DNA of 47,436 nt from Anthoceros angustus. Lineage: Eukaryota > Plantae > Anthocerotophyta. The stretch lies in NCBI GenBank assembly GCA_010909165.1, contig VJWM01000349.1, positions 1 through 47,436 of the forward strand. Direction: 5' to 3'. The translations under genes were made by a program, and so were the position numbers. The notes beneath the pieces were generated by a model. The model was not told the origin of the DNA, ran no database searches, and saw only the letters and a program-made list of their open reading frames with translations. Position 1 is the first letter of the stretch; each line of letters starts with the position of its first letter. This document shows, in pieces, positions 7,570 to 43,689 of this stretch.

Positions 7570-9669
7570 ATGACCAAGCCTACCATGACCAAGGGCAAGG
7601 TAGTAGCCAAGGAAGGAGCGTCCACCAAGGGAGGTGGCGAGGAGGCAAGAGGTCTAAGGCGGAGGATCGACCGGAGGTGGAAATTTGACATGCCTACGTG
7701 CTATGCAGGCCAGCTATCCTCTAGAGACCTTTCGGACTTTCGACCTTGGGCAGCGAGGAGAATATTCAGCTAGAGTGGGTGTATGGGACATTGGTCTTAC
7801 ACCAACCTTGAATTGATAGAGAGTGTTTTGCTAATTTGCGTGACGGAGAGGAATTGGCCGCCTTAGGATAGCAGACGGATCACGGTGTTGGGTAAGGAGC
7901 ATACGCCGGTATATGGCGGGGGGAGCGAGGATAGCGGAATCACGTTGATGGAAGGAAGCAGTGGAGGCAAGCGTGCATCAGCGGATCTTCCCAAGGAGCC
8001 CTTATATGCAAGGGGCATGAAGGCTAAGTCCAAGAACGGTTGGCGACGGACCAAATCTTGGAGCCCAAGTGGAGATTGTTCACAAGAATTGTTTTGGGCT
8101 TGGTGAGCAATCCAAGGGTGTCATATTTCAGCACTACCTTCCTCCATTTTCTATGGAAGATCACTCAAGGCGAAGCGGATTGGGGGCTCATCATGTATGA
8201 AGCATACACCTACCACCGGAGTTCTTGAAACGCGTCGGATGAAGGCAGGTCACCATGCTATCTTAGCACTTATCTAGTGCATTTGTGGGAAGTAGAGGGC
8301 TACTCACAAGTAAGGAGTTGGATGATTCCAAGCATCCCTTTAACATTGTGTACTTACCGGAGAGGGACAGTGCTTGGTGCTGCTAAAGGAGGTGCGGACC
8401 ACAGGACATTATTCTGGAAGGAATCCCTCAGAAAGATAGGCGGAGGATGTGCGGGAGGACTTGCAAGGAGAAGTTGTAGGGGATTTGAAGTTTGGACCCA
8501 TGAGGATGCGGAGATGGAAGGTAGGATAGATCCTACCATGGCGGGAATCCCGCTGGGTGGGAGGTGTTCCCACGGTGGTTTGGGACCCCTTTGGTCCTCT
8601 CATGACAAGGCCTGGGTGATTAGTCCTACCACGGTAGGAAGTAGTCCTGGTGGTAGGAGCACCTCCTACCACGGTAGGAGGAAAGGAAGTCACGGTTTGG
8701 AAGCTCCCAAGGAGATAAGAAGGCAACCGGCCCGTTAGGGGGCGGCGGATGGAGTCACGGTGGGAGGAGTTGCCCACCAAGTGATGAGCGGGAGCTCATC
8801 ATAGGGAAGCAAGGGATGTAAGATCCCATGAGCAAGGCAAAGGCCTTGAGTCTCCCGGAGGTAAGAAAGGAGACTTGGACATGTTGGAGGAGATCTGCGC
8901 ATAGGGAGATGTTCAGCAAGGTAGACATAGGAGCCGCCAAGAGGAGAGTTGAATTCTTGAAGGCGGAGGCGGAGAAGACAAGGACCTACCAAGCAAGGGA
9001 AATTGCGGGTGGCGGAAACCCAGTGGAGGATGTTATGAGGATGGAAGCTCAAGTGGAGCACTTGGAAAGAGTCTTGAGGCGAGGCCGAAACAAACCATCA
9101 TATTCGGAGAACAAGGCTCTTACCAAGCAATTGGCAGCTCGAGAGGAGAAGGTGGAGCAACTTGCTCACATGGTGCGCACATGGGAAAAGAAGGAGACAA
9201 GCAAGTGCTGCTAATGGAGGAAAGGTCAAGGCGAGCAATCTCAGCAAATGAGGACAAAGGCAAGTAGGCGCACATGAGCGGGTCATAGCCACAGTGTGAA
9301 GATTAGTGACATGGAAAAGGAGCTGGGAGAAATCCAGGGCTGGAATTGAAGGAAGAAGAGCTGGAAGACGGACACATTTGTCCAAAGATTGGAAATGGAG
9401 CAGAAGTCCGGAGAGAATGCACAACTCCCTAGGAGGATAGGGAGTTGGAGGAAGAAATGGCAAAGGAGAAAGTCATGAGGCGGTGGTGCGGCATATGTTG
9501 GCGGTGAGGAGATTTCGGGCTGATTATGCCTACAAGAGAGATTGATCCAAGCTGCAGAATGAGAGGAGAGAATGTGGCTCTCCATGTCAAGGCGGTGAGC
9601 TGGCCTTGGGCAGATGCTTACAAAAGCAAGTGTGAGCATGGTGTATGGCTTGAGGATTATGAAGAATTG
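7570..9669 (+). pseudogene. Family-A LTR-internal ORF, resembling Athila extra-ORF / putative plant transposon protein, with coiled-coil tail (frameshifted)
   Basis: MTKPTMTKGK..., CYAGQLSSRDLSDFRPW, YTNLELIEECFANL, WRLFTRIVLGLV, LWKITQG..DWGLIMYEAY, STYLVHLW. Family assignment is by motif resemblance only. Confidence 0.7.
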
Positions 9670-11351
9670 TCCCAATGCGGCTTGGCTCCTCTCGAAATCT
9701 TCCACAAAATTGGGGAAGTTGGTGCCGAAGTGAAGTCCGTTGGTAATTCACCAACCACAACACAATCTTTGCAAAGAGCCTCCACTTCAGCTCCTTGATA
9801 CTATCCGTCTTCCATCCATTCTTGGCATGGCCTTCACTCCTCCATCCATCATATCGAGGACCTCCTGCGGAATTTCCGAGAGGGCAATCCTCTTCCCTCC
9901 AGTTGTCCTCTCGAGGAGAGAGATTTCTGAGCTCTCCTCCTCCAGCCTTCCATACACTTGTCGGTCCTTGGGTCGGGTGGAGCATTCCTCTCTCCAGCAA
10001 GGTTGATGAGGTTGATGTAACACTCCTCAATCAATTCCAAATTGGTGTAGGCCCATTGGCGGCCATACACCCATCCCAATTGGATGTTGTCTTCTTCTGC
10101 CCATTGCCGAAAATCGACCAAATCGCGGGGGTTGAGCTGCCCCGCAAAACAAGTGAATTGGGGCATCTCGACTTCACCCCCTCCTGGCGGCGCAGCCTCC
10201 GCTGCCTTCTTTCCTTTTCCTCCTCGTGAGGAGGAACCCTTGGCAGGCGGTTCCTTCCCCTTGCCTTTTCCAGCTCGAGGCATGGCGCCTTTTCACTCTC
10301 CAAACGCTTCTAAGGAAGAGAATTACTCCCCAATTCCACGCGTTGAGGGCTCCAAAGCCTCACTCCCAAACCTCCTTCCTTGTCAGCTGTGACATCCAAC
10401 TGAGGCACAAGTACACATTAGCCACGGCTTGAGCCCTCCAGCTGCTGCCAATTCCCTCTCGCATAATTTCTCCTGTGGCAGGCGCCCGGGTAAACAGCAA
10501 ATGGGGCTCCTTCCTGCTCTTTGACCTCCACGGTCCTCACGCTTCGGTGCTCCAGGGTGCCTCCGTCTTGAGCTCTGCTTCCGGCCTCCAAAAGCGCGCT
10601 CCTCCTGATTGCGAACTCAAAGAAAACTTCCCACAATCCAGGATGTTGGATGCCTTCCTCTTCGCTCCGCCACGCTCAGTTAGGGCTTTCTCTCTTTTCT
10701 CAGCTTGCGCGCCGTCTTCCTCTCGTTCGCAGGTTGCAGCGACAGCGATGGCGATGTCAGCCCACTCTTTTCCTTCTCCTTCGCGCTTACTCTCCAACTC
10801 CAGTCACAGTCCTTCACGAAGTGTGGACGTTCCAGCTCGAAGAGAAAGTTGGCGCTTCCAAAACTGCACTTTGCCCTCCTTGGATGACCGCCACCTGGAG
10901 GCTTCACAACCCTAGATTGGGTTGATCATTCTAAAATACCTAATCCTAAACTGCCTATTTTCCTATCCTATCCGCTACCCCTAACTAAGGACCTTCTAAT
11001 TAATCTTATTTATCTATTTCCCATTGGTAGGCATATATAGTGGATATCCCCTTTATTCTAATTTCCGTTTCGGGAGTCCTCGTCGGAAAGCCTACGGTGG
11101 TAGCCTCTGCGGTAATTTTTTGCTCTCCAGGCGTAGTGTGGCGACCTACCGTCCTTTTGACGCCCATGCCTCGTGGGGTCATTTTGACCCGTTCTTTTCC
11201 ACAGGATATCCTCTACGCCTTCCTAATATCCTACAACTCGACTCCAAGCTTCTCGGAAAATTTCCATGTCCCCTCAATTGTTTTCGGCCAAGAAAAGTCG
11301 GCTCATCCCTGCAGCTCGTTTGGACGGGTTGCCCAAACTTTACGTTCCACA
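9660..11351 (-). mobile_element. Gypsy family-B long LTR, 5' part
   Basis: Starts TGTGGAACGTAAAGTTTGGGCAAC at 11351; colinear with 22558-24070. Confidence 0.78.
9670..10283 (-). pseudogene. Family-B LTR-internal ORF, N-terminal part
   Basis: MPRAGKGKGK...CFAGQLNPRDLVDFRQWAEEDNIQLGWVYGRQWAYTNLELIEECYINL...KNGWKTDSIKELKWRLFAKIVL; a clear homologue of the family-A ORF. Confidence 0.75.
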
Positions 11352-20143: not shown

Positions 20144-22557
20144 TGTGGGAGGCAGATCCCGGGGCTCCCGAGATTCACCCTCTAGTGGCCACACTTATCC
20201 CACTATCCGCTAAGTACAATAGGTTTCGTCCCATGAGACTCTTGTTTGTCGGGTCACTGTCCAAGGCACAAACCACACACCTCTTCCACACCCCCAAGCT
20301 CCCTCAGTGGAGCAACCTCAACTCACTCCGCAGGCGGCCCCACGCCTCCGTCTTTCCTCCGTCAATCACTTCGGACCTACAATGACACCCCTCGACTATA
20401 GGTCCACACCCCGCGGCGGTGGGTGAGGCTACGCCGTGGGACCCCCTCGTTGCAGCGACTTCACCACCGTGATCTTCCACTATTCCTTTCCCATTGCCTT
20501 CCCACAATTGGCATCCTCAACCACCAACTCGGCGGCAGCGCTCCCATGTTGCTCCGGGAATCGCCTCGGGACCTACCCAACAACAAACAATTGTAGGGCC
20601 TACCCTCCTACCACTTGTAGGAGTTGTAGGAGATCTGGCTGGTGGGCGGCACACCCTCATTCCTACGTGGGAGGAGACACCCTATCCCAGCATGCGCGTG
20701 CATCCTACCACCGGTAGTCGCACTGGCCGGACATAGGTTACCTCGCCCTAGTTCAAGGCCTCTCCAACTTCCGAGGCGCTCCAACTACAACTGGCGCCCA
20801 CAAAACTCCACACTAGCGGCCACGACACCTCCCTTGCTCGTCCATCTCGCTCACGGACCTGGACATCCTACGGTCGTAGGTCCCACCCTCTGGTGTCCAT
20901 CCCTCACACAAGGGACCCCCTAGCGGCGACTTCTCCACCCGTGATTTTGAGACCTTAGCTTCCGGTCTCGGTTTGGTGCAGTTGGGACCCCTCCCTTAGG
21001 CTCGACTTGGGCCTTCTTCTTACTCCTAATCTCTACCTACTCCTCTACTCAACATTCAACTCCACATTCTCCTCAACACTCACCTCAACTCAACTCCTCA
21101 TCCTCCTAATCTAACCTTACTTCAAGCTCACCTAGCCCTTACGGCACAACACAGGGTGCCCTAAGCCAACAAGTTCTTCCTTGGGCGGGGTTGCTATGAG
21201 TTTGCACAGGGCGAGAACCTCCGAGTCTTTCCATAGTCTACCCTCAAGCAGAGTTCCTTGGGCATCGCCACACACCCAAAGCAAAGCAATTTCCAACCAT
21301 TCACAGGGGAGCAACACCGGGCGCCCGCAAGGCGAGCCCTCATAAGCACTCCACCATAAACTCCTCTCTAACCTTCCGTTAGCTTCACGAAATTCCTTCA
21401 CAAGGAGCAAAGGACTCGCAGTTTGGGAAAGGCCGATATTTTCTTCTCAAACGCCTTATAGGGCTCATACATAAGGCCTCCCTTGGCCACACCTCCCCTT
21501 ACTTTTCCCTCGTTCTTCCTCAACCACTATAAACTAATAGCCGCCTAAAGCCGCATTAAAACCACTACCCACTCGCTTTCGATCATCATGACAATCACCT
21601 AGAAAACTCTCAATCTCCCTATTTTAACAATAAGTATGACTGGCTGCGTTAAAATCCTAAGAGTTCTCACTCCAAATCCTAACCAATCTACCATAAATCC
21701 TCCACTTGCCTCGGCATTGACTCCTAGCAGTGCTCCGCATAATTCCACAGTGGTTCCTCTGAGCCACACACACTCAACATCATGAAATCTAAAGCTTGGT
21801 GGAGAAGAGACCCATGCTCTTCCGTGGTTTGCCTCCATCCCTCCACAATTATGAGCCTCCACTTGTCATCCCCAATATTTTCACAATGAGCTCACTCCAA
21901 GCTACCAACCCCTTCAATTACCTCCATGGCATCTCTGCCGTCGCCTTGTGATCCTCGGATGTGGGCCACCCTCTACACCTCCTACGGACATAGGGTCAAC
22001 TTGTTATACCTCCCTCGGACGTGGGTCAAATTCTTCTCGCCTCCACACTCTCCACTACAGAAGGTCTCCGTGAGATCTTGCTCCATGCCTTCCTCTTCCT
22101 CCTCCAGTCATCCTCGGCCTTCCATACACACCCGGATGTGTTGGGCTGTCGGCCACCAGATCGGTCCTTGCATCCCTATTCTCCGTTCCTCAAGTTCCTC
22201 TGGCTCCCTAGCGGCAGCTTGCCCTTCTTAGGTGCAGGCGCTTTCACCATCTTACACCCTTCAAGATAACTGCACAAACAAGCTTGCACACCCCACCTTG
22301 TTTCTACCTAGTCGCCACCTATTTCTACACATAATTTACGAGCTTTCTTCACTTACAAAATCCACCAAGAGAGCGACCTTTCACTTACTTCCTCTTCACT
22401 CACAGTCCCACCTAGCTCAAGCAGCGTCCTCACAGCATACAGCTCTTTATGCGCCCAATCCCTCACTTGCAAGGTCCAGGCACGAAAAATTTAGCCCGTG
22501 CCCTCTTCCATTTGCTTCAAATCCTTCACACAACTCCTTTGCACCTTCTCCTTACAC

Positions 22558-25500
22558 CTAGGCCTTAAAGTTTGGGCAACCCAAAGCAGGGAGGAGACAA
22601 GTTTGATTTTTTTGGCTAGCGATTGAAGAAGCATGCGAAAAATCTTGGAAAAGTTGTAAAATATTGTTAGGAAGGCGAAGAGGATATCCCGGGGAAGAAG
22701 AATGGGTCAAACGACCCCAGAAGCGGAGGCGTCAAAGGTAGGTGAGACTACGCCGTGGGCTGCCACTCTGGTGAGGAAGCGGACTACATGTGGTGGCAGA
22801 CTACCGTGGTAGGCTGACGAATCTCGGCTAAAAAGGAAATTTAGAATAGAGGGGGGATATCCACTATATATGCTCACCAATAGGGGAATAAATATATAGA
22901 GTAATTAGAAAGCGGTTAATTAGGGATAGCGGGCAGGATAGGAAAATAGGTAGTTTAGATAGAATTAGGATTTTGGAATGATGAACCCAATCTAGGGTTG
23001 TAGCCGCCAGGTGGCAGACATCTAAGGAGGGCAAAGTGCGTTTGGGCGCTTCTCCACTTCAAGACAGAGAGGCTGGCGTTGGACGCAAAGGAAGGAAGAG
23101 GCGCCATCATGCGAAGAGAGGCGCCATCGCCACGAGCAAGCGGGAGTGAGGCAAGGGGGCGCGCCATCGAAAGGAGAACCCAACGCGGTGGCGGTGGAAG
23201 GAAAAGCGGCGGGCAAGTGGGACTCGCACGCCTCGGCCGGAGAGGAAAGTGTGGGCGAGCGCCAGAAGCAAACTGCGTGGTCATAGAATTGAAGGCGGGA
23301 AGGCGTTGCGAACAATCGGCGGCGCCTGGAAGAAGGACAACGGGAGGAGGCGGCTGAAAGACTCGCCAGGCTAACGTGTCTGCGGTGAAGTGGTTGCTAC
23401 CCCAAGGGAGGTTTGGAAGAAGTTTGGGAGCACTTTGGCATTGGAAGTAATTCCTTCCTTTGAAACACTTGGAAAGGAAGCGCCATGCCTCGAGGAGGAA
23501 AAGGCAAGGGAAGGAGCCGCAGCAAAGGCTCTACCTCGCGAGAAGGAAAAGGGCAAAAAGCGCGGAGGCTACGCCGCGAGGAGGAGCTTTTGATGCCACA
23601 ATTCACGTGCTGGGGCAACTCAAAGATTTAGTGATTTCGGCGTGGGCGAGGAGAGAGAACATCCAATTGGGATGGGTGTATGGCCGCCAATGGGCCTACA
23701 CCAATTTGGAATTGATTGAGGAGTGTTCATCAACCTCCATCAATCGGAGCGCCCGCCGCGGAAAGGAATGCTCGCGGATCCTGGGCGTGAGCATTCGGTG
23801 TATGGGAGGGGAGGAGAGCTCTTGCTCTCCTCGAAAGGTCGAATGGAGGAAGAGGAGCCCTCTCGATTCCACAAATTCCTCGACATGATGGATGGGAGTG
23901 AAGGCCCATGCCAAGAATGGCTGGAAAGCAGAGCATCAAGGAGGCTGGAGGCTCTTTGCAAAGATTGTTGGGGTTGGTAAATTACCAGGACTTCTTATTT
24001 CAGCACCAACTTCCTCCAATTTTGTGGAAGATTTCCATGGAGGAGCCAAGCATTGGGGCACCATCATGTATGAGGCCTACATCCACCAGGAGAAGCTCCT
24101 CAAGCCAAATTCGGTGGATGAGGAAGGGCCAAGGCCACTACCTTAGCACCTATTTGGTGCATTTGTGGGAAAGCAGGGACTTCTCACAAGCAAGGAGTTG
24201 GAAGATGCTTGGCATCCTTGAGATAATCCATCTCCGCCCTTGGAAAGGCCTTTGCCTTTTGCATTGAGGAAGGCGGTGGGGAGGGACCTCCACAAGCATG
24301 CTAGAGCAAGGAGGATGTGGAGGCAACAAGGTTGCGGGGTGGGAATCTTTTCCCCAGAGCAAGAAGAGGAGAGGAGCGGCCGAGGAAGGCCGAATGGTAG
24401 TCTATGAGAGGAGGACTACCGGGAGGGTGGCACCCCAAGGGTGGGGAGTCCCCACCATCTCATTTGTGCCTAGGAGGGCCACCTACCGGTGAGGCGGCCT
24501 ACCCAAGGTGGGCACTACCGTGGTGGGGAGTCTACCACGGTAGGGCGGACTACCGTGGGAGCACCCTCGCGGTGGCGGCACCCTGTGGTGCGACCCTCTG
24601 GTAGGAAGGAAGAAGCGGCCCGGGCGCCTCCGCTTGGAGGAAGCGGATGGAGGCGGCAGTGAGGGACCCGCCGCGTGATGGCGATGGCAGAGCTGGAAAT
24701 TTCCAGCAAGAAGAGGAGGAATTAGGGCCCTAGGAGAATTCTTGAGTGCTTGTGAAGCACTCGGCGTGGATTTGAAGGGGCTAGGGAGACGCTCCTTGTG
24801 GGCATGCCGAGGAAGTGAAAGCCCAAGACATGGCGGAGGAAGGCGGGGACCAAATGGCAATTGGAGGCCATGGAGTCCGATGACAAGTGGAGAAGGGCAG
24901 AGAAGCTCCAGCGACCTCATGGATGGAGGCGGAGAAGGTCCTAGGGGAAGGTTGTCACAGAGAGAGCCATTCGGGCAACAACCCAAGGATTCATGGAGGC
25001 AAAAGGCGGAGGAGCATTTTGCCCAATTAGAGCGAGCGAAAGGGCAAAAGCGGAGGCTCGGAAGGGAGAAGGTGGCGGTCCAAATGGGCCGAAGCAGTGA
25101 TGGCTACCCAAGCCATCAAAATCCGGACATGGAAGAATTGCGGACCGGTAATTTGGAAGAGGCGAGCTGGAGGCTCAAGACCTAAGACCAAGAGTTGGGC
25201 CGAAGAGTGCTTGGCGGAGGAGAGGAGACTTGCCAAGCTGGCACTGGAACAAAGGAGGTTCCAAGGAGGAGCACCACAAGAAGGTGGTGCAGATCTTGGT
25301 GGTGAGGAAGATTTTGGGCGGACTATGCCCTTGAGCAAGATGGCCAGCAGTGGGAAGTGAGGAGGAGAATGTGACCCTCCATGTCAAGGTGGGGAATTGA
25401 CCACCTCAGGGGCCTACAAGGTAGGTGTGAGGATGGAGAGTGGCCACGGAGATTGATGATCTCCAAATGCAATATCATAGCTTGGGGCTCACCTCCACAA

Positions 25501-27390
25501 TAGGATTTGAAGGCCAACAATGAGGTCTTGCGTTTGGCCAAGAGGAGGACATTGGGTCCTCATGATGATGAGGAGCTGCAAGGGAGGCCTCCGATTTTGA
25601 TGAGGCCATCGTGAAATGGACTCAGAGGAGTCGGAGATGGGGGAGGCGGTAGCGCCAAGGGTGGAAGATGGCGCGGAGGCAAGGAGGGGACAGCCCACCC
25701 TCACGGGGTCAACCTACCACGGTGGGTGACCACTACCACGGTGTCGCCGGACTACCGTGGTGACCACCTCTGTGGGTGTCGCGGACTGGGGTGAGCAGTG
25801 CCAGCGGGGAGCTGAGTCGGGCGGGCTGGCCGAGGATGAAGGAGCCGGGGTCCGTGGTATACCCCTGGAGGAGCGGTGGTGGTGGGGAGACAACCCAGGA
25901 GGAGACTAAAGGCGGGGTCCGTCGAGGAAGGAGGGTGAGAAGTTCCCTCGCCCACGGATAAGGGAAGGGCCGGGGCGGGGAGAGTCAATGCAAAGGGCCG
26001 GAGAAGTTAGACATGGTGGCAATTGGGAGAAGAACTCTTTGATGCTCCATGATAGGTATGGACAAAAAACAAGAGGAAAGGAGCAAAGATTCCACCCAAG
26101 GCGGGATGGAGAAAGAAGGAAAAGGCGACTACCATGGTAGGTAGTCACCCGATGATCGCGGACTACCGCGTAGGGTCGATAGCAGGCGCGAGCGCGGAGG
26201 CTGGAGAAAAGGCGCTGGCGCGATTGGGAGGGAGGAATCGGTGCGCCGCGGAGAGGAAGGCGGTGTACTTGCCCATTAGGAAGGCAGGATCAGGAAGGGA
26301 GGGAGCAAGGAGGCGAGGCCAATCCACAAGGACACGTCACCACCCCCAAGATAAGGACTAGAATGGTCAATGACCATAAATGAGCTTGGGGAATAGGAAG
26401 GATAGGTGGTGTGGTGACATCCTTTAAGGATGATCTTAGGTGAAGTTACTAGAATAGAATTTACCAAGGACAATAGACTTAGCCTTAAATCTTTGGCGGT
26501 AGGAAATAATAGAAAATTGGAAAAGGTGACTGTAGGGTCACCTAAGGGAGGTTGTATGTGGAAGGCCTCCTATAAGAGGAGGAGGATTTCACAAAGTAAA
26601 GTATCATGTCTTGCGCTTCCTCATCGAGTCCTTTGCCATTCTGGAGGAATTTCGTGTTGTGAGCCAACCAGTCTGGTAGAGAGGAAGTCGCGGTGGTCGG
26701 AGTGCTTGGTGGAGGACTTGCTCAAGTGCCTAAACGAGTTGCTCCCTTGTGAATGGTTGTGTGAAATTGCTTTGCTTTGGGTGTGTGGCAATGCCCGGGA
26801 ACTCTCGGTTGATCCAGGAAAGACTCCTGGAGGTTCTCACAGTGTCAAACTCATAGCAAGGAAGAACTTCTGGTGGAGGCCAGCGGTTGTCGTAAGGGCG
26901 AGTCGAAGCCAGTGAAGCCCAGGCGAGGTTAGAATAGGAGGAAGAGGATGAGAAGATGAGTAGAGGATTAGAGGTGTAGGTGTTGGTGGAGAGGCGAGCC
27001 TAAGGGAAGAATCCCAAATGCAAGTAAAGCGCTCACAGGTGGAGAAGAGTGGTCTTAAGTAGGGACGAAATCGCGGTGTGGATCGGGGTCCACAGGCGCC
27101 GTGATAGGCTCCCTCGAGGCGGGACACCGCAATGTGTTGTGTGTGTTGTAGGTCGAGGGTTGGTGATTTTGAGCGGTGCAAGTGGTGCAGTGCTGTAAGA
27201 GGGAGAGTGAGGCGCCTTGCTTGTTAGAAGGGCGAAGTTGTGTCTCTGCGGTGGCGATCGGGTGTCACAAGACCTCGAACTTTCACACAAGTCTCATGGG
27301 AATGAAACCCAATGCAGAAGCGGCGATTGGGATAAGTGTGGCCGCTATAATGGGAGGACCTCGGGAGTGCCCCGGGTTTTCCCTACCACA
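22558..27390 (+). mobile_element. Family-B solo LTR (~4.8 kb) containing a long ORF
   Basis: Left end ...TAAAGTTTGGGCAAC (first bases degenerate), right end GATAAGTGTGGCC...TACCACA, TATA at 26571, no PBS after it. Host LTR is continuous across it with flanks TACAC and CACAC. Confidence 0.8.
23485..25770 (+). pseudogene. Family-B LTR-internal ORF, full span (about 750 codons, frameshifted; end approximate)
   Basis: ENIQLGWVYGRQWAYTNLELIEEC, WRLFAKIV, LWKIS..HWGTIMYEAY, LSTYLVHLWESRDFSQARSW, coiled-coil tail, RRTLGPHDDE. Confidence 0.72.
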
Positions 27391-28763
27391 CACACACATG
27401 GGCACCGCGTTCTCACCAAGTCCTTGCCCTAGTTCCCTTGCATGCACAAGCTCTTCCTCTCAATTCCTCGCAGGCTTCCTAGGTGCCACTCCCTACACAC
27501 CCCGCTTGCATCACCCCGCTTGCATGGCCCTTTGGTAGTGATAGTGAAACTCCTTGATATAGGCCGTTGATTCCCTGCCATGTGGCACCATTTCCACCGC
27601 CCTCTGTTTAGAGGCCCTACTTGTTAAAAGCACCCTACACTACCTACCCCACATATTTATGTTCTATTATTCCTAATATATCCTATTTATCCACAACCTT
27701 GCATATGCAGTCTTCTTTAGCAACTTCCTAGGTTTGTACCTGCCTTATCTGGAAAGCTTGCTGCCCAAGGTACCCATATATGTAGGGTGTCGCACCCCAC
27801 CTCACGTAGGGAGACCTCACCACTCCCTACGGTAGGGAGACACTCTCATCCTACCTATCTACCTACCTACCTAACGACCTACCTAGTTACCGCCCGTAGG
27901 GAGTCCCTGCTACCTACATCCTACCCATGTAGGGCCACCCTGGTCACCCTACATACTACTTGCATCTCTGTCCCCTACTTATGGACACGCACCGTCCTAC
28001 CAACCCTCCTTGCTACCCATTTCTCCTCGCGGCCACCACAACAGCCTCCCTTCACTTTGACTTGACAGCAAATTCCGCCATGATGCACACCCTGTGATCC
28101 CTTCACCATGTGCCCACACGCCTTCCTATGGTTTGGCCACACCTCCATCTTGCAGCCCGATACAAATTCATCTGAGTGCTCTACCACTTTCCAGTTCAAC
28201 ACACGACCCTATCATGCCATCCTCACATCGTGACTCCACCGAGAGCACTTCCACGTGCCTCAATGGCCTCCTCTTGCAACCCTTGTGGCTTTCACGAACA
28301 TGAAATCTCGCCCCATCCTTGCACCATTGCTGCTCCTCTCATCTTGGCTCCCGGCCTAGAGCCACACTCATCTTGAATTCCACCATTACAGGCACTTGGC
28401 CCATCTTCTCGGCAAGCCACACACCTCTACCTGCAGTCCTCCTCGCAAAAATCTCAACAACGTGAGCACTCCTGTCTCACTTCTTCCACACGTGGTATTA
28501 CTTGCCTTCTTAAACTAGGTGATGGCCCCCAATAATCGGGCCTTTGCCTCTGCAGTGTCAGCGCTGTGAACCTCAAGCTACTTCCCTTAATTGCCTTCAC
28601 CCTCTACTCCTCATTCTCCAACAAATTGCGTCAAGATCTTCTGACAATTCTCTTTCACTTCACTTCACTTCTCTCCCGTTTGCTTCAGCTCTGCTCTAGT
28701 TTTGCTCTAGTTTGATCCCTTTTGATCCAAAAAGTAGGAGTGCCCAAACTTTTATGTTCCACA

Positions 28764-29603
28764 CCTTGAAATTTGGTCAATCTCTTCGTTAGAGCCTCCA
28801 CTTGTCTTGCAATTCCGCCTCCTATGGCAGACGTTTCTCCCTTCTCCATTCGACGAGCCGTTTTCCCTTTCCTCTCCTTCTCCAACGCGCGTTCCGCTTC
28901 TTCCTGCCTCCTCTTGACCTTCTCCAAGTCCTTTCTCATTCGCCGTTCGTAGGCCTTCTCTGATTCCTTGTCCGATGGAGCTTTCAGTTCCCTGCCTCAC
29001 TTCGATGAGGATGAAGGTGACGAAAGCTGAGGAGGAGAGGAAGACGAGGAGCTCGATTGCCTCGATCCCTTCCTCTTCTATGACCCGCTTTTCCTCCTTC
29101 TCCCCAACTCGGTCCCATTCCTTAGCTAATCGAATGGCTCGGTCTTGTCACGTCTGCTTGCACTTCCATTTTTGGGACAATCCGCCTCACAAACCAATCC
29201 AACTGCTCTTGTGAGTACCGGTGGGTGGATAATCTCTCGCGCACACTTTGGAACTCGATCTAGGTAACCATAGAACCTCCCACATAATCAAATGATTCTC
29301 TCTTCTTCCTACGGACGGTCCTCAGTTTTGCCAGGGTATGATGAGCTTAACTGAGTCCTCGGAAGCGATTCAAGAAAGCCGCTTGAGCCTCCCAAGTCGG
29401 TGCCACCAAATGAGTGCGACCATACCATTGTTGCGCATGCCCTCTCAGCAGTCCAGGAAAGATGCGCAGTCAATCGGCGACTCCATCCTCCAAGTTGGCG
29501 TGGGAGACGTGCTCGAAAGTTCTCACAAACGCCTCCGCGTCATCCCCCTTCTTCTTCTCGCCAAATTTGACATATTATTGGCGACTGTGGAGCTGTGGCA
29601 GTG
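28764..29603 (-). pseudogene. gag: Gypsy gag middle segment (capsid-like core and coiled coil)
   Basis: Hand translation: LPQLHSRQ*YVKFGEKKKGDDAEAFVRTFEHVSHANLEDGVAD*LRIFPGLLRGHAQQWYGRTHLVAPTWEAQAAFLNRFR, a retrotransposon Gag pattern. Confidence 0.85.
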
Positions 29604-32600
29604 TGGAATATGAAAGTTTGGGCACTCCTACTTTTTGGATCAAAAAGGATCAAACTAGAGCAAAACTAGAGCAGAGGACGGAGAATTGAAGTGAAGTGGA
29701 AGAGAATCAAGATCTTGAGGCAATTTGTTGGAGAATGAGGAGTAAGAAGTGAGGAGCCAAGCAAAGTAGGTTTTGGCTGTGATAAACTGCGGGGGACCAC
29801 CACCAAGTTTGAGGAAGGCAAAGTAATTTGCCACATGTGGAAGAAGTGAGACATGGGCGGTGCTCATATTGCTGAGATTTTGCGAGAAGGAGGACTACTA
29901 GGTAGAGATGTGGCAAGGGGGTTTTGCAGAAGATGGGCCAAGTGCCGTAATGGTGTGCAGGGCTCTGTGGCTCTGGGTTGGGAGCTCGGCATGCGAGAGG
30001 AGCAGCAATCTTGCAAGGATGGGAGCGAGGAGCTCATGTTGAGGTGAGCAGCCACAAGGGTTGCAAGAGGAGGCCATGGCGCGAGGCTCACATGGAGTCA
30101 CGATGAGGATGGCATGATAGGGCCGTGTGTTGAACTAGGAAGGCCAGTGGTGGCACTCACGGGCTGAATTTGTAGGGGCTGGATGGAGGTGTGGCCAAAC
30201 CATAGGAAGGCGTGTTGCGGGTGGCATGAGGATCACTGGCAGGCGTGCATCATGGCGGCGGTGAAGGGCCGGTGGTGACGCGGATATGGATAGCAAGGAG
30301 GGTTGGTACGAGATGTTGTGGAGGCGTGAGAAGTTCACCGAGGATAAGTTCATTTTATTCTTGATGAGTGTTATGCAAGCCAATTGGGTGTGTTGGACAA
30401 TGGAATGTAAGAACTCGAGTTAAGCGTCCTAGGGGTGGATCGACGGATGGGGGCCTTTGTGTGAGGTGTTATATTTAGTATGAGATTGGGAGTGTTGAGT
30501 GGTGCACCCTACGGAATAGGTGTAGGGTGGCGGTGGGCGTAGGGCATGGCACTCCCCTCGTAGGGAGGTGCACCCTACGAGGAGAAGTGAGGCGTGGCAG
30601 GAGAAGGTGTAGGGGGTGGTGGCCCTACATGGAGGAGGTGTAGTGAGGTAGGTAGTAGTGGGGTATGAGGGGACCCTACATAGGGGCAGGGTCCCTACTA
30701 TGTATGTGGGTAGGGATGCGTAGGGATGGTAGGCGGTGCGTGTCCCTATGTGTCCCCTGTATCGATGTAGGGAACAAGGTGTAGGACAAGTAGGGGATAG
30801 AGATGCGGGTAGTATGTAGGGTGAGGGGTGGCCTACATGGGTAGGATGTAGGGTGGCGGGGCTCTACGGGCAGTTAGGTAGGTAGATAGGTAGGATGAGA
30901 GTGTCTCCCTAGGAGTGGTGAGGTCTCCCTCGTGGGCAGCGGAGGTGGGGTGACACCTACTTGGATACTTGGAAGCTTACTTGGATACTTGGGAAGCAAG
31001 CTTTCAGGATGTACAAACCTAGGAAGTTGCAAGAGGGTGCATAGGCAAGGTTGTGGATAAATAGGATATATTAGGAATAATAGCACATAAATATGTGGGG
31101 TAGGTAGTGTGGTGTGGCCATGCAAGGTGTGTGAGTGGCACCTAGGAAGCTCGAGGAATTGCGGAAGAGCTTGTGCATGCAAAGGAATGGAAAGCTAGAG
31201 CAAGGACTTGGTGAGGCGGTGCCCGTGTGTGTGCAAGGAGAAGGAGGGTGCGTGCATAAGGAGTTGTGTGTGAAGGATTTGAAGCACAACTGGAGAAGAG
31301 CAAGGCGCTGAATTTTGCGTGCCTAGGACCTTGCAAGTGAGGGATTTGGGCGCATAAGGAGTTGTATGTTGTGAGGACATCAAGTTTGAGCTAGGTGGGA
31401 CTGGAGGAGGAAGTAAGTGGAAAAGGGCTGAAGTTGCTCTCTTGGTGGATTTTATGTGGTGAAAATTGTGTGTGCAGGTGACAACTAGGTGGAAAGCAGC
31501 ATGGGCGTGCCCCAAGCTTGTCTTGTTTGTGCGATTATTTTGAAGGTACAAGATGGTGAAAGCGCGCACCTAAGAAGGGCAAGTTGGTTGCTAGGAGCCA
31601 GGAAGAGGAGATGCTTGAATTTAATTGCACAGCAGGAGGCTAGGCATGGTGGCATTCATATGGAGGACAGCCCAACACATCCGGTATATGGAAGGCCGTG
31701 AGGATGACTCGGAGGAGGAAGAGGAAGGCATGGAGCAAGATCCGCTCACGGAGACCTTCTTGCGGTGGAGAGTGTGAGGCGGTAGGGCCATAAGAAGTGA
31801 CCCTCGTCCGTAGGAGGTGTAGAGGGTGGCCCTACATCCGTAGGATCACCGGTGCGGATCTAGAGGTAATTGAAGAGGTGGTGGTAGCTTGGAGCGTGGG
31901 CTCATTGCTTGGGGAGACTTTTCTTTAGGGAGGACAGGCATTAATGCTTGTCAACCCAGAGGGTGTGTTGACTAGCTGGATAGGAATGTTGACAGAGCCA
32001 TTAAGGCTCACATAGGGTGAATTGCTAGAATAGAATTTTACCCAAGATGCTTGGATGTCGAACTTAAAATCGGTAGGATACACTAAAATAAGGCGGCGGT
32101 GCAGAGGGGCGCTTGAGGCAGAGGACCTCCCTATAAAAGGAGGGAGCTTGTGAAGTAAAATTATCGTGTCTTGCGCTCCCAAAGTCCTTTGCTCCTTGTG
32201 AAGGAAGTTCGTGGTGCAAGCTAACGTGGCGTAGAGAGGGAGTTTGCGGTCGGAGTGAGGGCTCGCTCCTTGCGGCGCCTCTGGTTGCTCCCCTTGTGAA
32301 TGGTTGTGAAATTGCTTTGCTTTGGGTGTGTGGCGATGCCCAAGGAACTCTCGGCTTGAGGGTAGACTACAGGAAAGACTCCCGAGGTTCTCGTGCAAAC
32401 TCATAGCAACGCCCAAGGAAGAACTTGTTGGCTTGTAGGCGGACCCAGGTTGTCGTAAGGGCGAGCTAGGGCCGGTGAGCTTGAAGTAAGGTTAGATTAG
32501 GAGGATGAGGAGTTGAGTTGAGGTGAGTGTATGTTGAGGAGAATGTGGAGCTGAATGTTGAGTAGAGGAGTAGGTAGAGATTAGGAGTAAGAAGAAGGCC

Positions 32601-33189
32601 CAAGTCGAGCCTAAGGGAGGGTCCCAAATGCACTAAACCGAGACCCAGGCTGGGCTAAGGTCTCAAAATCACGGGTGGAGAAGTCGCTACCGTAGGGGGT
32701 CCTCGTGCGTGAGGTGGACCTACCATAGTGGGACCTCTGAGGATGTCGTTGTAGGTCCAGGAGTGGTGATCGGAGAGGCGGGAGTGGCGGCCGTAGAGTT
32801 GGTGGTTGAGGTGTGCCAATTGTGGGAAGGCGATGGGAAAGGAATAGTGGACGATCACGGGTGGTGAAGTCGCGTTGCAACGTAGGGGTCCCTACGTGCG
32901 TGGCCGACCCTCGCGTGGGGTGTGGACCTATATAATCGTAGGGTGTCGTTGTAGGTCTAGAAGCGGTGATTGGAGCGGCATGGTGAGGCGTGGGCTGCTG
33001 CATGGAGTGAGTTGAAGTTGCTCCAGTGTGTGAGGGAGCTTGGGTGTGAAGAGGCGTGTGGTTTGTGCCTTGGATGGTGACCTGACAAACAAGAGTCTCA
33101 TGGGACGAAACCTATTGTACTTAGCGACAGTGGGATAAGTGTGGCCACTAGAGGGTGAATCTCGGAAGCCCCAGGGTTTTCCTCCCACA
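29602..33189 (+). repeat. Family-C 5' LTR
   Basis: TGTGGAATATG...CCTCCCACA; TATA 32131-32140; direct repeat of 34517-38211. Confidence 0.92.
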
Positions 33190-33193
33190 TTTT

Positions 33194-33211
33194 TGGCGCC
33201 GTTGCCGGGGA
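33194..33211 (+). other. Primer-binding site, tRNA-Asp
   Basis: TGGCGCCGTTGCCGGGGA, the Athila-type PBS complementary to the 3' end of plant tRNA-Asp(GUC). Confidence 0.92.
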
Positions 33212-34500
33212 CTCTTTGCTTTGGCAAGTCGGCAGTGGAAGAGGCATGAACATTGTTGAGAATCTCTAATCGGGGGATGCGAGGATGAAGTTTTATTGTA
33301 GGCATGGAGAGGAGATCGCCCCTGCTGATTTTTGCAAGTGGTGTGAGAGTTGCATGACGTGTAGAGGAAGAAGCCGAGGAGAGAGCTCTTGCGGAGGAAG
33401 CTACATGTGCTAACATCTTCAAGTGTTCTGTTGAGCAAGAAGAGGTAGTTTTCTAAGAGCAGGAGAAGGTTGTGCTCACGGACAACAAGAGGAAGGAGGT
33501 TGTCGAGGAGTTCTTGTGGGGTGAGGGTCAAGAATTCGAGCCAGTTAGTAGTTTCGAGGGATTTGGAGGAGCTAAGAATGCGAGCATGAGAGCGGCTATT
33601 GCTCATGGGGCGTTGGTTAGAAGAAAGAGCTTGAGAGTGGGCATATGTTGTTGCTTCCCAAGATTTCATGAGGATGATGTCTAGGAGGAAGTGGAGGTCG
33701 TGCTCTTGACCAATGGATAGTTTATGGAGGCTAGGTGATGGCGAGGGCTTTACTTTGAGGAAGAGGGCCCGGGGACATGCTCAAGGTACGCTTGCCTTGA
33801 TTGTGTGGTTGAGAGGAGGAACTTGAATTCGAGCTTGGAGGGCTTGGATGCTTCTTTTGGCATCAAGGAGGAAGTAATTGTGAGCGGTTGTGTAGCTATT
33901 CGTGGGAGATGTCTAAGGCCATTGAAGAGAGTGCTTCCAATTTATTGTCAGGAGTGTTCTTGTATGTGACGGGTTGGTACCGTGCTCAAGATGGGGTTGC
34001 CTATGTTGCAAGGAGGAGTCAAGTGGAGGAGCTATCTCAAGGAGGTTGCTTCAAGTTGCATCTTGAGGCTTTGCTTTGTCTTGATATGAGCAGATTGGAG
34101 ATGGAAGACAAGGAACGAGGTGGGAGAGAGTCACTTGAAGGAAGTTGGAAGAATTTGAGGAGGAATTGCGGATTGAAGTGGACATCTTGAGGAAGGAGTG
34201 ATGACCAAAGCCTTGAAGAGAGGAATTGCAAGCTTTGAAGTTGCTGTGAAGGATTATGTGGAAATTTGGTGGGAGGCTTGGGAGCATTCATGGCACATTT
34301 AGAGCTCCGAGGTCTTGGAATTTGGAAGATGTCCTTCCACAACATGCATGTGAGATGGAGAGGTTGTGTTTTACAAGGAAGTGATGTTTTGTATTTTCAC
34401 GAAAGTGTATGCTAGGAATCTAACATGACCACTTGTCACTACGATGAATGGTGGAAGGCGATGGAGTATCTACAATGGTAGGTTGTTTGCGGGGCAAACA

Positions 34501-34514
34501 AGTGAGGTGGGGAG
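34501..34514 (+). other. Polypurine tract
   Basis: AGTGAGGTGGGGAG, 2 nt before the 3' LTR. Confidence 0.8.
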
Positions 34515-34516
34515 TA

Positions 34517-37500
34517 TGTGGAATATGAAAGTTTGGGCACTCCTACTTTTGGATCAAAAGGATCAAACTAGAGCAAAACTAGAGCAGAAATGAGCGAGGA
34601 GAGAATTGAAGTGAAGTGGAAGAGAATTGTCAAGATCTTGAGGCAATTTGTTGGAGAATGAGGAGTAGAGGGTGAAGGCAATTAAGCCAAGGAAGTAGCT
34701 TGAGGTTGCTGCCGCTGTTGATAGGCTTGCGAGGCAAAGGCACGATTATTGGGGACCACCACCAAGTTTGAGGAAGGCAAAGTAATTTGCCACATGTGTG
34801 GAAGAAGTGAGACATGGGGTGCTCATATTGCTGAGATTTTGCAGTAAGGAGGACTGCTAGGTAGAGATGTGTGGCAAGGGTTGCTGCGGAAGATGGGCCA
34901 AGTGCCCGTAATGGTGGAATGCAGGATCTGCGGCTCTAGGTTGGGAGCTCAACATGCGAGAGAGGCGGCAATCGGTGCAAGGATGGGAGCGAGGAGCTCA
35001 TGTTGAGGGTGAGCAGCCACAAGGGTTGCAAGAGGAGGCCATGGCGGTGCGAGGCACATGGAAGTGCTCTGGAGTCACGATGGGAGGATGGCATGATAGG
35101 GCCGTGTGTTGAACTAGGAAAGGCCATGGTAGAGCACTCACGGCAGCTGAATTTGTAGGGCTGCAAGATGGAGGTGTGGCCAAACCATAGGAAGGCGTGT
35201 GCGGTGGGCGCAACATGGTGAAGGATCACCAGGGTGCATCATGATGCGGAATTTGCGGTGGGGCTGCAAGTCAAAGTGAAGGGAGGCCGTTGTGGTGGCC
35301 GCGAGGAGAAATGGATAGCAAGGAGGGTTGATACGAGATGTTGTGAGGCGTGAGAAGTTCACCGAGGATAAGTTCATTTTATTCTTGATGAGTGTTATGC
35401 ACAAGCCAATTGGGTGTGTTGGACAATGGAATGTAAGAACTCCAGAGTTAAGCGTCCTAGGGGTGGATCAAGAGATGGGGCACCTTTTGTGTGAGGTGTT
35501 ATATTTATCGCATGAGAGCTAATTGGGAGTGTTGGGTGTGCACCCTACGGGGTAGGTGTAGGGTGGCAGTGGACGTGAGGCATGGCACTCCCTACATGGA
35601 GGTGCACCCTAGCGGTGTGGAGGTGTGGGATGGCACGAGGAAGGTGTGGGAGGTGGCCCTACGAGTGGAGAAGGTGTGGGCGGAGGGTCCACAGGAGGTG
35701 CAGGGTAACAGGGGACCCTACATAGGTAGGCAGGGGTCCCTACATGTATGTATGTGGGTAGGACATCGTATGGGTAGGCGGTGCGTGTCCCTCGGTCCTC
35801 CTACCGAGTAGGGAACAAGTAGGGGATCTGGGTGCAGGGACAAGTAGGGGATGGTGGGATGTGGGGTGTGGGGGCCCCTGGGCATTAGTTAGGTAGGTAG
35901 ATGGGTAGGATGAGGTGTCTCCCCTCGTAGGAGTGGTGAGGTCTCCCTCATTGGGCGCGGAGTGGGTCACCCTACTTGGATACTTGGAAAGCTTACTTGG
36001 ATTGGGAAGCAAGCTTTGATAAGCGGTACAAACCTAGGAAGTTGCTAAAGAAGCATAGGCAAGGTTGTGGATAAATAGGATATATTAGGAATAATAGCAC
36101 ATAAATATGTGGGGTAGGTAGTGTAGGTGTGGCCATGCAAGCGGGGTGTGGGGAGTAACCTAGGAAGCACAAGGGTGCAGGAGAGCTTGTGCATGCAAGG
36201 AATGCAAAGGAAAGCTAGGCAAGGACTTGGTGGGGAGCGGTGCCCGTGTGTGCAAGGAGAAGGAGGTGTGCATAAGGAGTTGTGTGTGAAGGGATTTGAA
36301 GCACAACTGAAGAGAGCAAGGGCTGATTTTTGTGTAGGACCTTGCAAGTGAGGGATTTGGGCGCATAAGGAGTTGTATGTTGTGAGGACATCAAGTTTGA
36401 GCTAGGTGGGACGTGGAGTGAAGAGGAAGTAAGTGGAAAAGGGCTGAAGTTGCTCTTGGTGGATCTTATGTGGCGAGTGAAGAAATCTCAATTGTGTAGC
36501 GAGGTGACAACTAGGTGGAAGCAAACATGTGGGCCAAGCTTGTCTTGTTTGTGCGATTATTTTGAAGGTACAAGATGGTGAAAGCGCGCACCTAAGAAGG
36601 GCAAGTTGGTTGCTAGGGAGCCGAAGAGCAGAGAGCCGCCAGCAGGACAGACACATCCGGTATATGGAAGGTAGAGGATGACTCGGAGGAGGAAGAGGAA
36701 GGCATGGAGCAAGATCCGCTCACGGGAGACCTTCTTGCAGTGGAGAGTGTGAGGCGGTAGGGCCATAAAGTGACCCCTTCCGTAGGAGGTGTAGAGGGTG
36801 GCCCTACATCCGTAGGATCACCAGGGCGGCATAGAGGTAATTGAAGAGGGTTGGTGGTAGCTTGGAGTGTGGGCTCATTGCTTGGGGAGACTTTTCTTTA
36901 GAGGAGGCATTAATGCTTGTCAACCCGTGAGGTGTGTTGACTAGCTAGATAGGAATGTTGAGAGCCATTAAGGCTCACATAGGTGAAGTTGCTAGAATAG
37001 AATTTTACCCAAGATGCTTGGATGTCGAACTTAAAATCGACAATAGGATACACTAAAATAAAGTGAGGCGGGGCCGAGGCGCGAGGTATGTGAGGACCTC
37101 CCTATAAAAGGAGGGAGCTTGTGAAGTAAAATTATCGTGTCTTGCGCTCCCAAACCATGAGTCCTTTGCTCCTTGTGAAGGAAGTTCGTGCAGCAAGCTA
37201 ACGTGTAGAGAGGGAGTTTGCGGTGGTCAGTGCTTGGCGGAGGCTCGCTCCTTGCGGCGCCTCTGCAGTTGCTCCCTTGTGAATGGTTGTGTGAAATTGC
37301 TTTGCTTTGGGTGTGTGGCGATGCCCAAGGAACTCTCGGCTTGAGGGTAGACTACGGGGAAAGACTCCGGAGGTTCTCGCTCAGTGCAAACTCATAGCAA
37401 CCGCCCAAGGAAGAACTTGGCTTGTAGGCGGACCCAGGCGGTTGTCGTAAGGGCGAGCTAGGGCAGTGAGCTTGAAGTAAGGTTAGATTAGGAGGATGAG

Positions 37501-38211
37501 GAGTTGAGTTGAGGTGAGTGTATGTTGAGGAGAATGTGGAGTGAATGTTGAGTAGAGGAGTAGGTAGAGATTAGGAGTAAGAAGAAGGCCCAAGTCGAGC
37601 CTAAGGGAGGGTCCCAAATGCACCAAACCGAGAGGCGGAAGGCTGAGCTAAGGTCTCAAAATCACGGGGTGGAGAAGTCGCCCCTGTAGGGGGTCCCTGT
37701 GTGGGCGGTGGACCTACCGCCATAGGGTGGGACCTACGACTGTAGGATGTCGTTGTAGGTCCAGGAGTGGTGATCGACGGAGCAGTGCGGGAGTGGCGCG
37801 GCTGCTGTTAGAGTTGGTGGTTGAGGGTGTGCCAATTGTGGGAAGGCGATGGGAAAGGAATAGTGGACGATCACGGGGTGGTGAAGTCGCGTTGCAACGT
37901 AGGGGGTCCCTACGTGCGTAGCCGCTGACCTACTGCCGTGGGGTGTGGACCTATAGTCGTAGGGTGTCGTTGTAGGTCTAGAAGCGGTGATTGACGGAGC
38001 AGCATGGTGAGGCGTGGCTGCTGTCTGTGGAGTGAGTTGAAGTTGCTCCAGCTGTGTGAGGGAGCTTGGGGTGTGAGGCGTGTGGTTTGTGCCTTGGATG
38101 TTGGTGACCGACAAACAAGAGTCTCATGGGACGAAACCTATTGTACTTAGCGGCATTGGGATAAGTGTGGCCACTAGAGGTGAATCTCGGAAGCCGGGGG
38201 TTTCCTCCCCA
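34517..38211 (+). repeat. Family-C 3' LTR
   Basis: TGTGGAATATG...TTTCCTCCCCA; TATA 37102-37111. Confidence 0.92.
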
Positions 38212-39052: not shown

Positions 39053-39070
39053 TCCCCAGCAACGGCGCCA
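39053..39070 (-). other. Primer-binding site, tRNA-Asp
   Basis: TGGCGCCGTTGCTGGGGA after ...CCCACA TTTT. Confidence 0.9.
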
Positions 39071-39074
39071 AAAA

Positions 39075-39324
39075 TGTGGGAGGGAAAACCCCGGGGCTTC
39101 CGAGGCTTCCCCCTCTAGCGGCCACACTTATCCCACTGTCGCTTCGTACGTTGGGTTTCATCCCATGAGACTCATGTGAAAGTTTGAGGTCTTGTGATAA
39201 CCGATTGCTACCTGTAGTGACACAACTTCTCAGCCTTCTAAACAAGCAAGGCGCCCTACTACCACCCTCTTCACAGTGCACGCTTGCCGCTCCGGAAGAC
39301 TACCACCTCAACCTACAACGACAC
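39075..39324 (-). repeat. U5 end of the host 5' LTR (closest to the family-B type)
   Basis: Aligns with 27140-27390 and 698-900. Confidence 0.85.
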
Positions 39325-43657: not shown

Positions 43658-43689
43658 TTTGGGGACAGCAGGGGAGAAGAGCCTCAAGG

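Follow-up and report, generated by a model that had tools for sequence, protein, structure and literature searches.

The window, by which is meant the whole 47,436-nt stretch of the Anthoceros angustus contig VJWM01000349.1, contains LTR sequences of families A, B, C and C' together with parts of a further element, E (Table 1). Its focus is the family B insert, which is likely the solo LTR of a gypsy-type element and which has a coding region upstream of its main TATA.

Table 1. LTR copies in the window and features within family B (window coordinates)
Feature	Position	Strand	Remark
B0: fragment of the family B ORF, 3' part	5..555	-	
A1: family A ORF 3' part, TATA (1516), LTR end (698), then PBS	688..4065	-	
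A2: family A LTR start and ORF (ATG 7570)	6370..9669	+	truncated
B2: B-related LTR start and ORF N-terminus (ATG 10283)	9668..11350	-	truncated
Family C' solo LTR, non-coding, host of the B insertion	20144..28765	-	perfect CAAGG target duplication
Family B, likely solo LTR	22558..27390	+	4833 bp as read
LTR start motif AAAGTTTGGGCA	22567..22578	+	single occurrence in B
Palindrome CTACCRYGGTAG, 5' copy in B	22801..22812	+	
AT-rich island with TATATAT	22860..23000	+	present in B, B2, A2 and A3
U3 coding region, indel-broken	23485..25730	+	~750 codons as read (estimate on noisy sequence); 3' end approximate
Conserved globular, likely helical domain	23560..24300	+	common to family A; strongest coding signal
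Mid-ORF palindrome cluster	24515..24561	+	no stop depletion
E/K/R-rich, likely coiled-coil region	24750..25300	+	
Palindromes at or after the ORF end (25714, 26129)	25714..26140	+	
Main LTR TATA and predicted start site	26570..26610	+	CTATAAG at 26570; homologous to A1 1516 and C 32132/37102
LTR end GATAAGTGTGGCC...CCACA	27331..27390	+	GATAAGTGTGGCC once in B, at 27331; PBS absent after end
Family C non-autonomous element: LTR pair, PBS-Asp, 1.3 kb internal region	29602..38211	+	
Host element E: B-like LTR end and PBS-Asp	39060..39330	-	
A3: family A LTR start and ORF (ATG 45103)	43687..46686	-	truncated

A preliminary description of this DNA had used family C to define the LTR of the clade, and this definition holds: the element consists of a direct-repeat pair (29602-33188 and 34517-38211) of non-coding LTRs of 3.6-3.7 kb, with the PBS TGGCGCCGTTG at 33194 and a purine tract ahead of the second LTR. 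Both ends of B are homologous to the LTR so defined, and the traits earlier ascribed to B, namely homologues of the LTR ends, the LTR TATA and the lack of a PBS, were all seen, with one start and one end motif. No PBS was detected in 22558-27390 with up to one mismatch, nor was a second LTR start or gag-pol found inside or adjoining B. The insertion is clean, as position 22557 pairs with 36250 and 27393 with 36252 of the C LTR. The approximate TSD claimed for B is weaker than described: the target is otherwise uninterrupted, but the candidate duplication (TACAC/CACAC) matches at only 4/5 positions within a CA tract, and the ~10 nt preceding AAAGTTTGGGCA are garbled, so that the 5' TG terminus of B is not readable; a 5' TG is present in B2, A2 and A3, and the 3' CA is present in B. 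The real length of this LTR is likely ~5.1 kb, because the window is 3-10% shorter than an accurate contig.

The same arrangement recurs in the other copies, in keeping with the initial view of B as a solo LTR bearing a gene upstream of the TATA: the order of start, ORF, TATA and end is common to B, B2 and A, with the coding region between the LTR start and the main TATA. B2 is colinear with B from the start motif into the ORF, a single HSP running across the first 1.5 kb of B, while A1 is colinear with B from the promoter to the LTR end; families A and B are ~65% alike. The PBS reported after the A copy at 698-4061 was also seen, partly garbled, behind the LTR end at 698, and because A1 ends with this LTR end and PBS, its sequence identifies it as a 5' LTR with the ORF in U3. 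A single independent contig of 4405 nt supports the reconstruction of the family A LTR from three pieces: it extends from close to the LTR start across the ORF as far as the TATA, covering 6561-8681 and then 3422-1482 with no pure skip. This contig comes from run X2, whose RNA nature is a guess, and its first base lies ~290 nt ahead of the proposed internal TATA, a misfit with that TATA being its start. At the other end it stops 27 nt past the main TATA, which would predict either a very short R or an antisense start.

The window is noisy. The two LTRs of family C differ by 206 gap events and 143 substitutions, with transitions about as frequent as transversions, and in 3896 bases compared the 4405-nt contig departs from the window at 147 letters, with a further 313 bases in gaps. 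Since copies differ chiefly by indels of 1-2 nt and the contig by many gaps, the frame breaks are likely read errors, of long-read-grade noise. Parts of the window may in addition be chimeric, given abrupt junctions at 9668, ~555 and 43687 and a bacterial-looking tail.

The ORF of B begins at an ATG whose gcgccATG context is common to B2 and aligns with ggccATG in A, and the AT-rich island upstream is a candidate internal promoter. The ~750-codon ORF proposed earlier is not open as read, with no sense frame in B running free of stops for more than 168 codons, but sense stop triplets are depleted across it, with 57 observed against 76.4 expected (z -3.1; ratio 0.75). The corresponding ratio is 0.76-0.80 in the A copies and 0.38 in B2; copia pol controls in the same window give 0.70 and 0.82, flanks 0.86-1.03, antisense strands 0.89-1.13 and C LTRs 0.98-1.00. 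Depletion is absent from the mid-ORF palindrome cluster (55/55, 1.00), the pooled C-terminus (0.99), B0 (1.12) and the final ~400 bases of B. In 20 gap-free ORF blocks the differences between A and B lean synonymous in the best sense frame (73 synonymous, 106 non-synonymous and 0 stops), as against 52, 132 and 12 in antisense and 30, 75 and 10 in 19 non-coding control blocks, but the blocks draw repeatedly on related copies and are not independent. Mod-3 tests were weak, as was frame-free periodicity, which reached p<0.05 in 2/6 ORF tests versus 1/5 non-coding controls. Frameshift-aware alignment scored sense above antisense in 4/4 ORF pairs and 0/4 controls, a result of little weight as the method overfits and produces third-position bias in controls too. 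Overall, protein coding by the U3 region is supported statistically.

Searches with pieces of the predicted product returned no homologue, which is weak evidence given such short and noisy queries. Word-based searches with two short, noisy ORF fragments yielded 0/473 and 0/6 candidates, a phmmer search of 1.84 billion representatives with a noisy 103-aa piece had no hit at E<=0.001, and in Pfam scans of 41 and 17 short, noisy window fragments the ORF pieces had no match above cut-off. PF03078 and PMD/MAIN were likewise not matched by the short ORF fragments, which is a weak test; a suspected resemblance to Transposase_32/Athila ORF-1 motifs was not confirmed. The family A homologue of the E/K/R-rich region has a sub-threshold match to a CENP-F leucine zipper (E 0.027). 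A predicted fold of a 57-aa piece consists of three helices (pLDDT 65, pTM 0.31), is uninformative and found no PDB match. As 19-residue hydropathy peaks at 1.37 in any sense frame, the product is predicted to have no membrane segment.

The coding families are also marked by the 12-bp palindrome CTACCRYGGTAG, which has 23 matches in the window versus 0.22 expected, 22/23 of them in A/B sequence. Larger clusters lie in family A at 6605-6747 and 46265-46409, and the family C LTRs contain related CTAC-N4-GTAG sites. Speculatively, this clustering hints at an element-specific regulator.

Clade placement draws on family C and element E. The PBSs at 33194 and 39060 are of the tRNA-Asp type, as in FIDEL, and also match Diaspora. 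Only the B-like end of the element E LTR remains, the rest being lost; its identity is 88%, compared with 94-97% within families. Downstream parts of E comprise gag (29601-29155 and 20151-19330) and protease (18849-18271), both liverwort-like, and the protease relatives are liverwort gypsy polyproteins (best 57%). An added RNase H was absent from 6/6 scanned protease relatives (6 of 26 scanned), which would fit Athila and Tat Z alike. The tRNA-Asp PBS and the liverwort-like gag and protease point to the Athila/Tat-Z group of Ty3/gypsy. No gypsy RT was found in the window, where neither family A nor family B is represented by a full-length, pol-bearing element, and a search of metagenome and viral contigs for the LTR-end and PBS pattern returned 0 loci. 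One supposedly related locus proved to be an unrelated, phage-like chance match.

Several other explanations deserve consideration. B might be a two-LTR element altered by deletion or recombination, or a chimera made in assembly, in which the 5' part of an LTR, a 3' ORF of the internal region and the 3' part of an LTR are joined. The noise and several abrupt junctions of the window, the garbled 5' end of B, and the cover of B, where 4/30 bins are without X1 cover and no contig spans the insert, are compatible with such an origin. It would, however, take two deletions, of the PBS and of the second LTR start, occurring twice in families ~65% alike, whereas the start motif runs continuously into the ORF in B2, A2 and A3 and the independent contig is continuous from ORF to TATA; we consider it improbable. 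A decayed ORF relic, carried as a passenger without function, would explain why all window copies are broken as read, yet the breaks resemble read errors, the coding signal is on a par with the copia pol controls of this window, and the A/B differences tend towards synonymous changes, which leaves this reading with a very small share of the probability.

Two further alternatives accept the LTR. In one, the LTR would hold not a single frame of ~750-800 codons but a pair of ORFs, or a gene whose transcript is spliced, and the palindrome cluster in the middle would be the spacer or the intron, in line with the lack of stop depletion there (55/55); the palindrome itself contains TAG, however, which biases the stop test, the X2 contig spans the cluster without a skip, and the A copies have open frames through it. 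A parallel exists in Athila, whose env mRNA is spliced (PMC7197481), but on balance this structure appears rather unlikely. The other accepts a real gene and holds that its product is a particle, RNA-handling or env-like protein, the palindromes being host TF sites or RNA hairpins, and we place it somewhat short of even odds. In its favour, clustered U3 enhancers are common, and related sites occur in the non-coding C LTRs. A particle protein would accord with the prediction of Athila domains as coiled-coil pentamers (PMC13547354), whereas the lack of a hydrophobic segment speaks against an env-like protein.

The reading preferred here, with a probability of roughly 0.78, is that B is the solo LTR of an Athila/Tat-Z-type Ty3/gypsy element whose ~4-kb U3 contains a protein-coding gene. 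Because reverse transcription uses the 3' LTR as the template for U3 on both sides, the gene would be copied into both LTRs, giving two copies per full-length element, and LTR-LTR recombination would leave it behind in a solo LTR that would keep a complete gene, in one frame, with its own promoter and expressed. The gene would likely be the former 3' accessory ORF of the clade, brought into U3 by an upstream shift of the site of plus-strand priming; Wright and Voytas are said to have described in 2002 a second, upstream PPT in Athila, which may have become the LTR boundary. The ORF product, with a basic N-terminus, a helical domain and a coiled coil, is tentatively predicted to be a nuclear accessory factor that would bind the CTACCRYGGTAG clusters of its own LTR and keep the family active, a role possible at well under even odds. 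The non-coding C family, with the related CTAC-N4-GTAG sites in its LTRs, may be served by this factor as well. Still more doubtful is the wider proposal that a bryophyte gypsy lineage moved accessory gene, promoter and binding sites into U3, making every solo LTR a self-contained cassette for an element-specific anti-silencing or trans-activating protein.

Known systems share parts of this organization. The MMTV sag product is a membrane superantigen, and the MMTV U3 measures ~1.2 kb, compared with ~4 kb in B. According to the accessible text of one study, MMTV and betaretroviral sag lies mostly in U3, as the ORF does here, is retained in solo LTRs (490/527 contigs) and has a described internal U3 promoter, although it belongs to vertebrate retroviruses and is unrelated in sequence (PMC4667437). 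In the portions available of an account of the OTA superclade, the Athila clade (Athila4, Calypso, Diaspora, FIDEL) resembles the present elements in a tRNA-Asp PBS a few nt past the LTR, long LTRs, a 5-bp TSD (here in C') and a sense accessory ORF downstream of the pol position; its LTRs measure 1.5-2.5 kb versus ~5 kb here, and its ORF, with membrane segments or PF03078, lies between pol and PPT, whereas the ORF here is inside the LTR and has no such segments (PMC6317226). Liverwort Tat Z1/Z2 'zero-structure' elements and hornwort Tat A are likewise bryophyte OTA elements, whose accounts treat pol and, in their accessible parts, do not mention an LTR-borne ORF (PMC10508981, PMC13468544). Ogre, Retand/Grande and other Tat elements also have LTRs of up to ~5 kb and, as far as the available text goes, accessory ORFs of which some are nuclear, with SMC-like or DNA-binding predictions, and one has its own promoter, but these are internal, before gag or antisense after pol, and not in the LTR (PMC7264820, PMC11963269, PMC1142308). 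VANC of VANDAL is similarly described, in the text accessible, as an accessory TE protein with a coiled coil and a short motif clustered in the element, although VANDAL is a DNA transposon and VANC binding and demethylation are demonstrated, whereas binding by the product here is a prediction (PMC6719617). In the openly accessible papers searched, no case of a U3-borne gene in a plant retrotransposon came up; subscription papers, and supplements such as the REXdb LTR tables, may hold some.

Plant LTRs are regarded as non-coding and solo-LTR formation as a disarming step. A U3 gene would survive that step and double per element, like MMTV sag, and in annotation these solo LTRs would pass for orphan host genes. 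With candidate target sites in the same LTR, these families would offer a tractable case for the function of Athila/Tat accessory ORFs. If the cassette proposal is true, deletion of retrotransposons by the host would spread a regulator rather than remove it.

Element C, which is non-autonomous, carries a pair of LTRs that start with TGTGGA..AAAGTTTGGGCA and end with GATAAGTGTGGCC..CCACA, the PBS (TTTTTGGCGCCGTTGCCGGGGA) lying after the first LTR and a purine tract preceding the second. An identical tRNA-Asp PBS is found in FIDEL (PMC2844528, in excerpt), and Diaspora and Calypso have the same one 5 bp past the LTR (PMC1142308, in excerpt). The gag gene of a host gypsy element, E, is interrupted by both C and the related solo copy C′, and B lies within C′, so that E forms the outermost layer of the nest, C and C′ the middle one and B the innermost. 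The LTR end of E scores best against B (281, 88% identity, versus 177 against A and 165 against C). Of 438 candidates, 26 match its gypsy protease (best 57%), and all 12 with a named organism are liverworts (Riccia, Marchantia, Calypogeia), which makes a bryophyte host likely. Judged by PBS and protease relatives, the A/B lineage would belong in the OTA superclade (Athila or Tat Z), where LTRs of up to ~5 kb and extra ORFs occur (PMC6317226, in excerpt).

Features of the nested LTR retrotransposons and adjoining sequence
Feature	Position	Strand	Remarks
B, family B insert	22558-27390	+	4.8 kb
B2, truncated B-related copy	9668-11350	-	
B0, family B fragment	5-555	-	
A1, family A copy	688-4065	-	
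A2, family A copy	6370-9669	+	
A3, family A copy	43687-46686	-	
C, LTR pair	29602-33188 + 34517-38211	+	Direct repeat
C′, solo copy	28765 to 20144	-	Perfect CAAGG duplication
E, coding matches	29601-29155, 20151-19330, 18849-18271		Liverwort Gag-Pol proteins
E, LTR end	39075-39330		Followed by PBS
D, GC-rich unit	39331-43660 and 11353-11442 + 17343-18100		
Copia fragment	4066-6369		Inserted in A1, interrupted by A2
Full-length copia	11443-17342		PBS-Met at 11593, Retrotran_gag_2 match, two short LTRs; inserted in D-type sequence
Tail	46961-47436		Bacterial-looking; directly after LTR-end-like motif

A promoter segment of noise-level identity is common to both C LTRs (31908-32425, 36881-37417) and family A (1207-1751), and C′ has other sequence at the corresponding place (21428-21884); a promoter swap between families appears likely. 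In the 1.3-kb internal region of C (33210-34500), sense stops are depleted (0.76, z -3.3) and Cys-rich stretches occur; one fragment of it had no Pfam match.

B contains a single start motif and a single end motif, no PBS was found in it with one mismatch allowed, and the target sequence of C′ picks up again within a few bases on both sides. Since its first ~10 nt are garbled and its TSD is 4/5 and inside a CA tract, solo-LTR status is not provable from the termini alone; stronger evidence comes from the families. A single HSP (B 9-1503) aligns B2 colinearly with B, beginning at the start motif and extending into the ORF, and another (B 3825-4826) aligns A1 with B from promoter to end. The preliminary description of B as a solo LTR is supported, with an imperfect terminus and TSD. 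Coverage of B by sequencing run X1 is in short pieces, over 26 of 30 bins. That B is instead a deleted two-LTR element is improbable, as the same two deletions would be required in two families ~65% alike.

For family A, one 4405-nt contig of run X2 aligns first to 6561-8681 and next to 3422-1482, in that order; one stretch is replaced and none is purely skipped. It connects a point ~190 nt into the LTR, by way of the ORF, with sequence 27 nt beyond the TATA; in the window, A1 runs on to the LTR end and a partly garbled PBS. This contig backs the preliminary rebuild of the family. Worked out by hand from contig and window coordinates, the LTR measures ~5.4 kb and the coding region ~800-840 codons. 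That run X2 is RNA is a guess; its contigs carry no strand information, and none covers R/U5. It is at the predicted start site (1482, ~27-34 nt past the TATA) that the 4405-nt contig stops, which could reflect a very short R, an antisense start or a break in the assembly. The copia fragment is covered by a 4331-nt contig of this putative RNA run at depth 125.

A coding region in the U3 of A and B is well supported. Against 200 dinucleotide shuffles, B has 57 sense stop triplets where 76.4 are expected (0.75, z -3.1), with the dip at 23158-25250 in sliding windows. Ratios are 0.80, 0.76, 0.78 and 0.38 in A2, A1, A3 and B2, with B0 the exception (1.12); controls gave 0.70 and 0.82 (copia pol) and 0.89 and 0.73 (E gag), LTR flanks 0.86-1.03, C LTRs 0.98-1.00 and antisense strands 0.89-1.13. 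In 20 gap-free blocks between diverged copies, which share copies and are not independent, counts of synonymous, non-synonymous and stop codons are 73, 106 and 0 in the best sense frame, versus 52, 132 and 12 in antisense and 30, 75 and 10 in 19 non-coding blocks. Example stretches read WGTIMYEAY/WGLIMYEAY and AKRRTLGPHDD/VERRMLGPHDD. Weak frame-free periodicity counts against coding, as does the absence of stop depletion in the mid-ORF palindrome cluster and pooled C-terminus. Of the ~750-codon ORF previously ascribed to B, the coding signal (stop depletion, synonymous lean) stands, but the longest stop-free sense frame is 168 codons.

The window is of long-read-grade sequence, in which most differences between copies are 1-2 nt indels; for the two LTRs of C, 143 substitutions stand against 206 gap events, with transitions about equal to transversions. 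Family A differs from the short-read contig by 313 gap bases and 147 letters over 3896 bases, the contig being 3-10% longer. The frameshifts in the ORF copies are therefore likely to be read errors, and lengths underestimated. At ~555, 9668, 39330 and 43687, truncated elements are abruptly joined without element ends or target duplications, through what may be either in vivo deletion or read chimera. The tail's unbroken reading frame, which we take to be HIT-type with an HxHxH motif, had no Pfam match at E 0.01; the tail suggests a chimeric contig end. Unit D, unrelated to A/B by blastn, has stop-depleted windows (0.53-0.77) that precede a TATA-like site (~43190) and an end resembling that of an LTR (43657), and is possibly a third ORF-bearing LTR.

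The predicted protein comprises a basic low-complexity N-terminus, a conserved ~250-residue domain, likely helical in a low-confidence model, a low-complexity middle and an E/K/R-rich region, likely a coiled coil by a weak match. No 19-residue hydropathy window in any sense frame exceeds 1.37, and word-based, phmmer and Pfam searches with short noisy ORF fragments found no homologue. Two features are additional to the preliminary description. In 4/4 copies that include the stretch 300-470 nt from the LTR start, an AT-rich island containing TATATAT is present there; it could be an internal promoter, although the X2 contig begins upstream of it. The palindrome CTACCRYGGTAG, allowing up to 1 mismatch, has 23 matches in the window versus 0.22 expected, 22 of them within A or B sequence (6 in B), near the LTR start, mid-ORF and past the ORF; because the copies are related, the count reflects clustering within a family and not independent origins. 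CTAC-N4-GTAG occurs with other spacers in the non-coding C LTRs and in neither copia element of the window. Speculatively, the product might be a nuclear factor binding these palindromes, by analogy with VANC proteins, which act via short clustered motifs (PMC6719617, in excerpt); this is less likely than not, and a particle or RNA-handling protein is about as probable, in line with the coiled-coil pentamers predicted for Athila domains (PMC13547354, in excerpt).

Described OTA extra ORFs sit in the internal region (excerpts of PMC7264820, PMC11963269), whereas the A/B ORF lies inside the LTR. A literature search of open-access main texts turned up no plant retrotransposon with a gene within its LTR, and excerpts of hornwort chromatin and Tat phylogeny papers (PMC10952607, PMC13468544, PMC10508981) do not mention one. 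The layout resembles that of MMTV sag, with most of the gene in U3 and most copies surviving as solo LTRs (PMC4667437, in excerpt), but the A/B elements, unlike MMTV, are not a retrovirus. Within the limits set by noisy sequence and incomplete A/B elements, the gene-in-LTR architecture is unusual and probably real. The ORF is probably the 3′ accessory gene of the clade, which would have entered U3 as the site of plus-strand priming shifted in the upstream direction. The U3 of both LTRs is templated by the 3′ LTR, and solo LTRs are the product of LTR-LTR recombination. With the ORF placed 5′ to the TATA within an LTR that a PBS follows, the gene-in-U3 architecture, to which we assign a probability of about 0.78, therefore implies that each element would carry two ORF copies and each solo LTR one.
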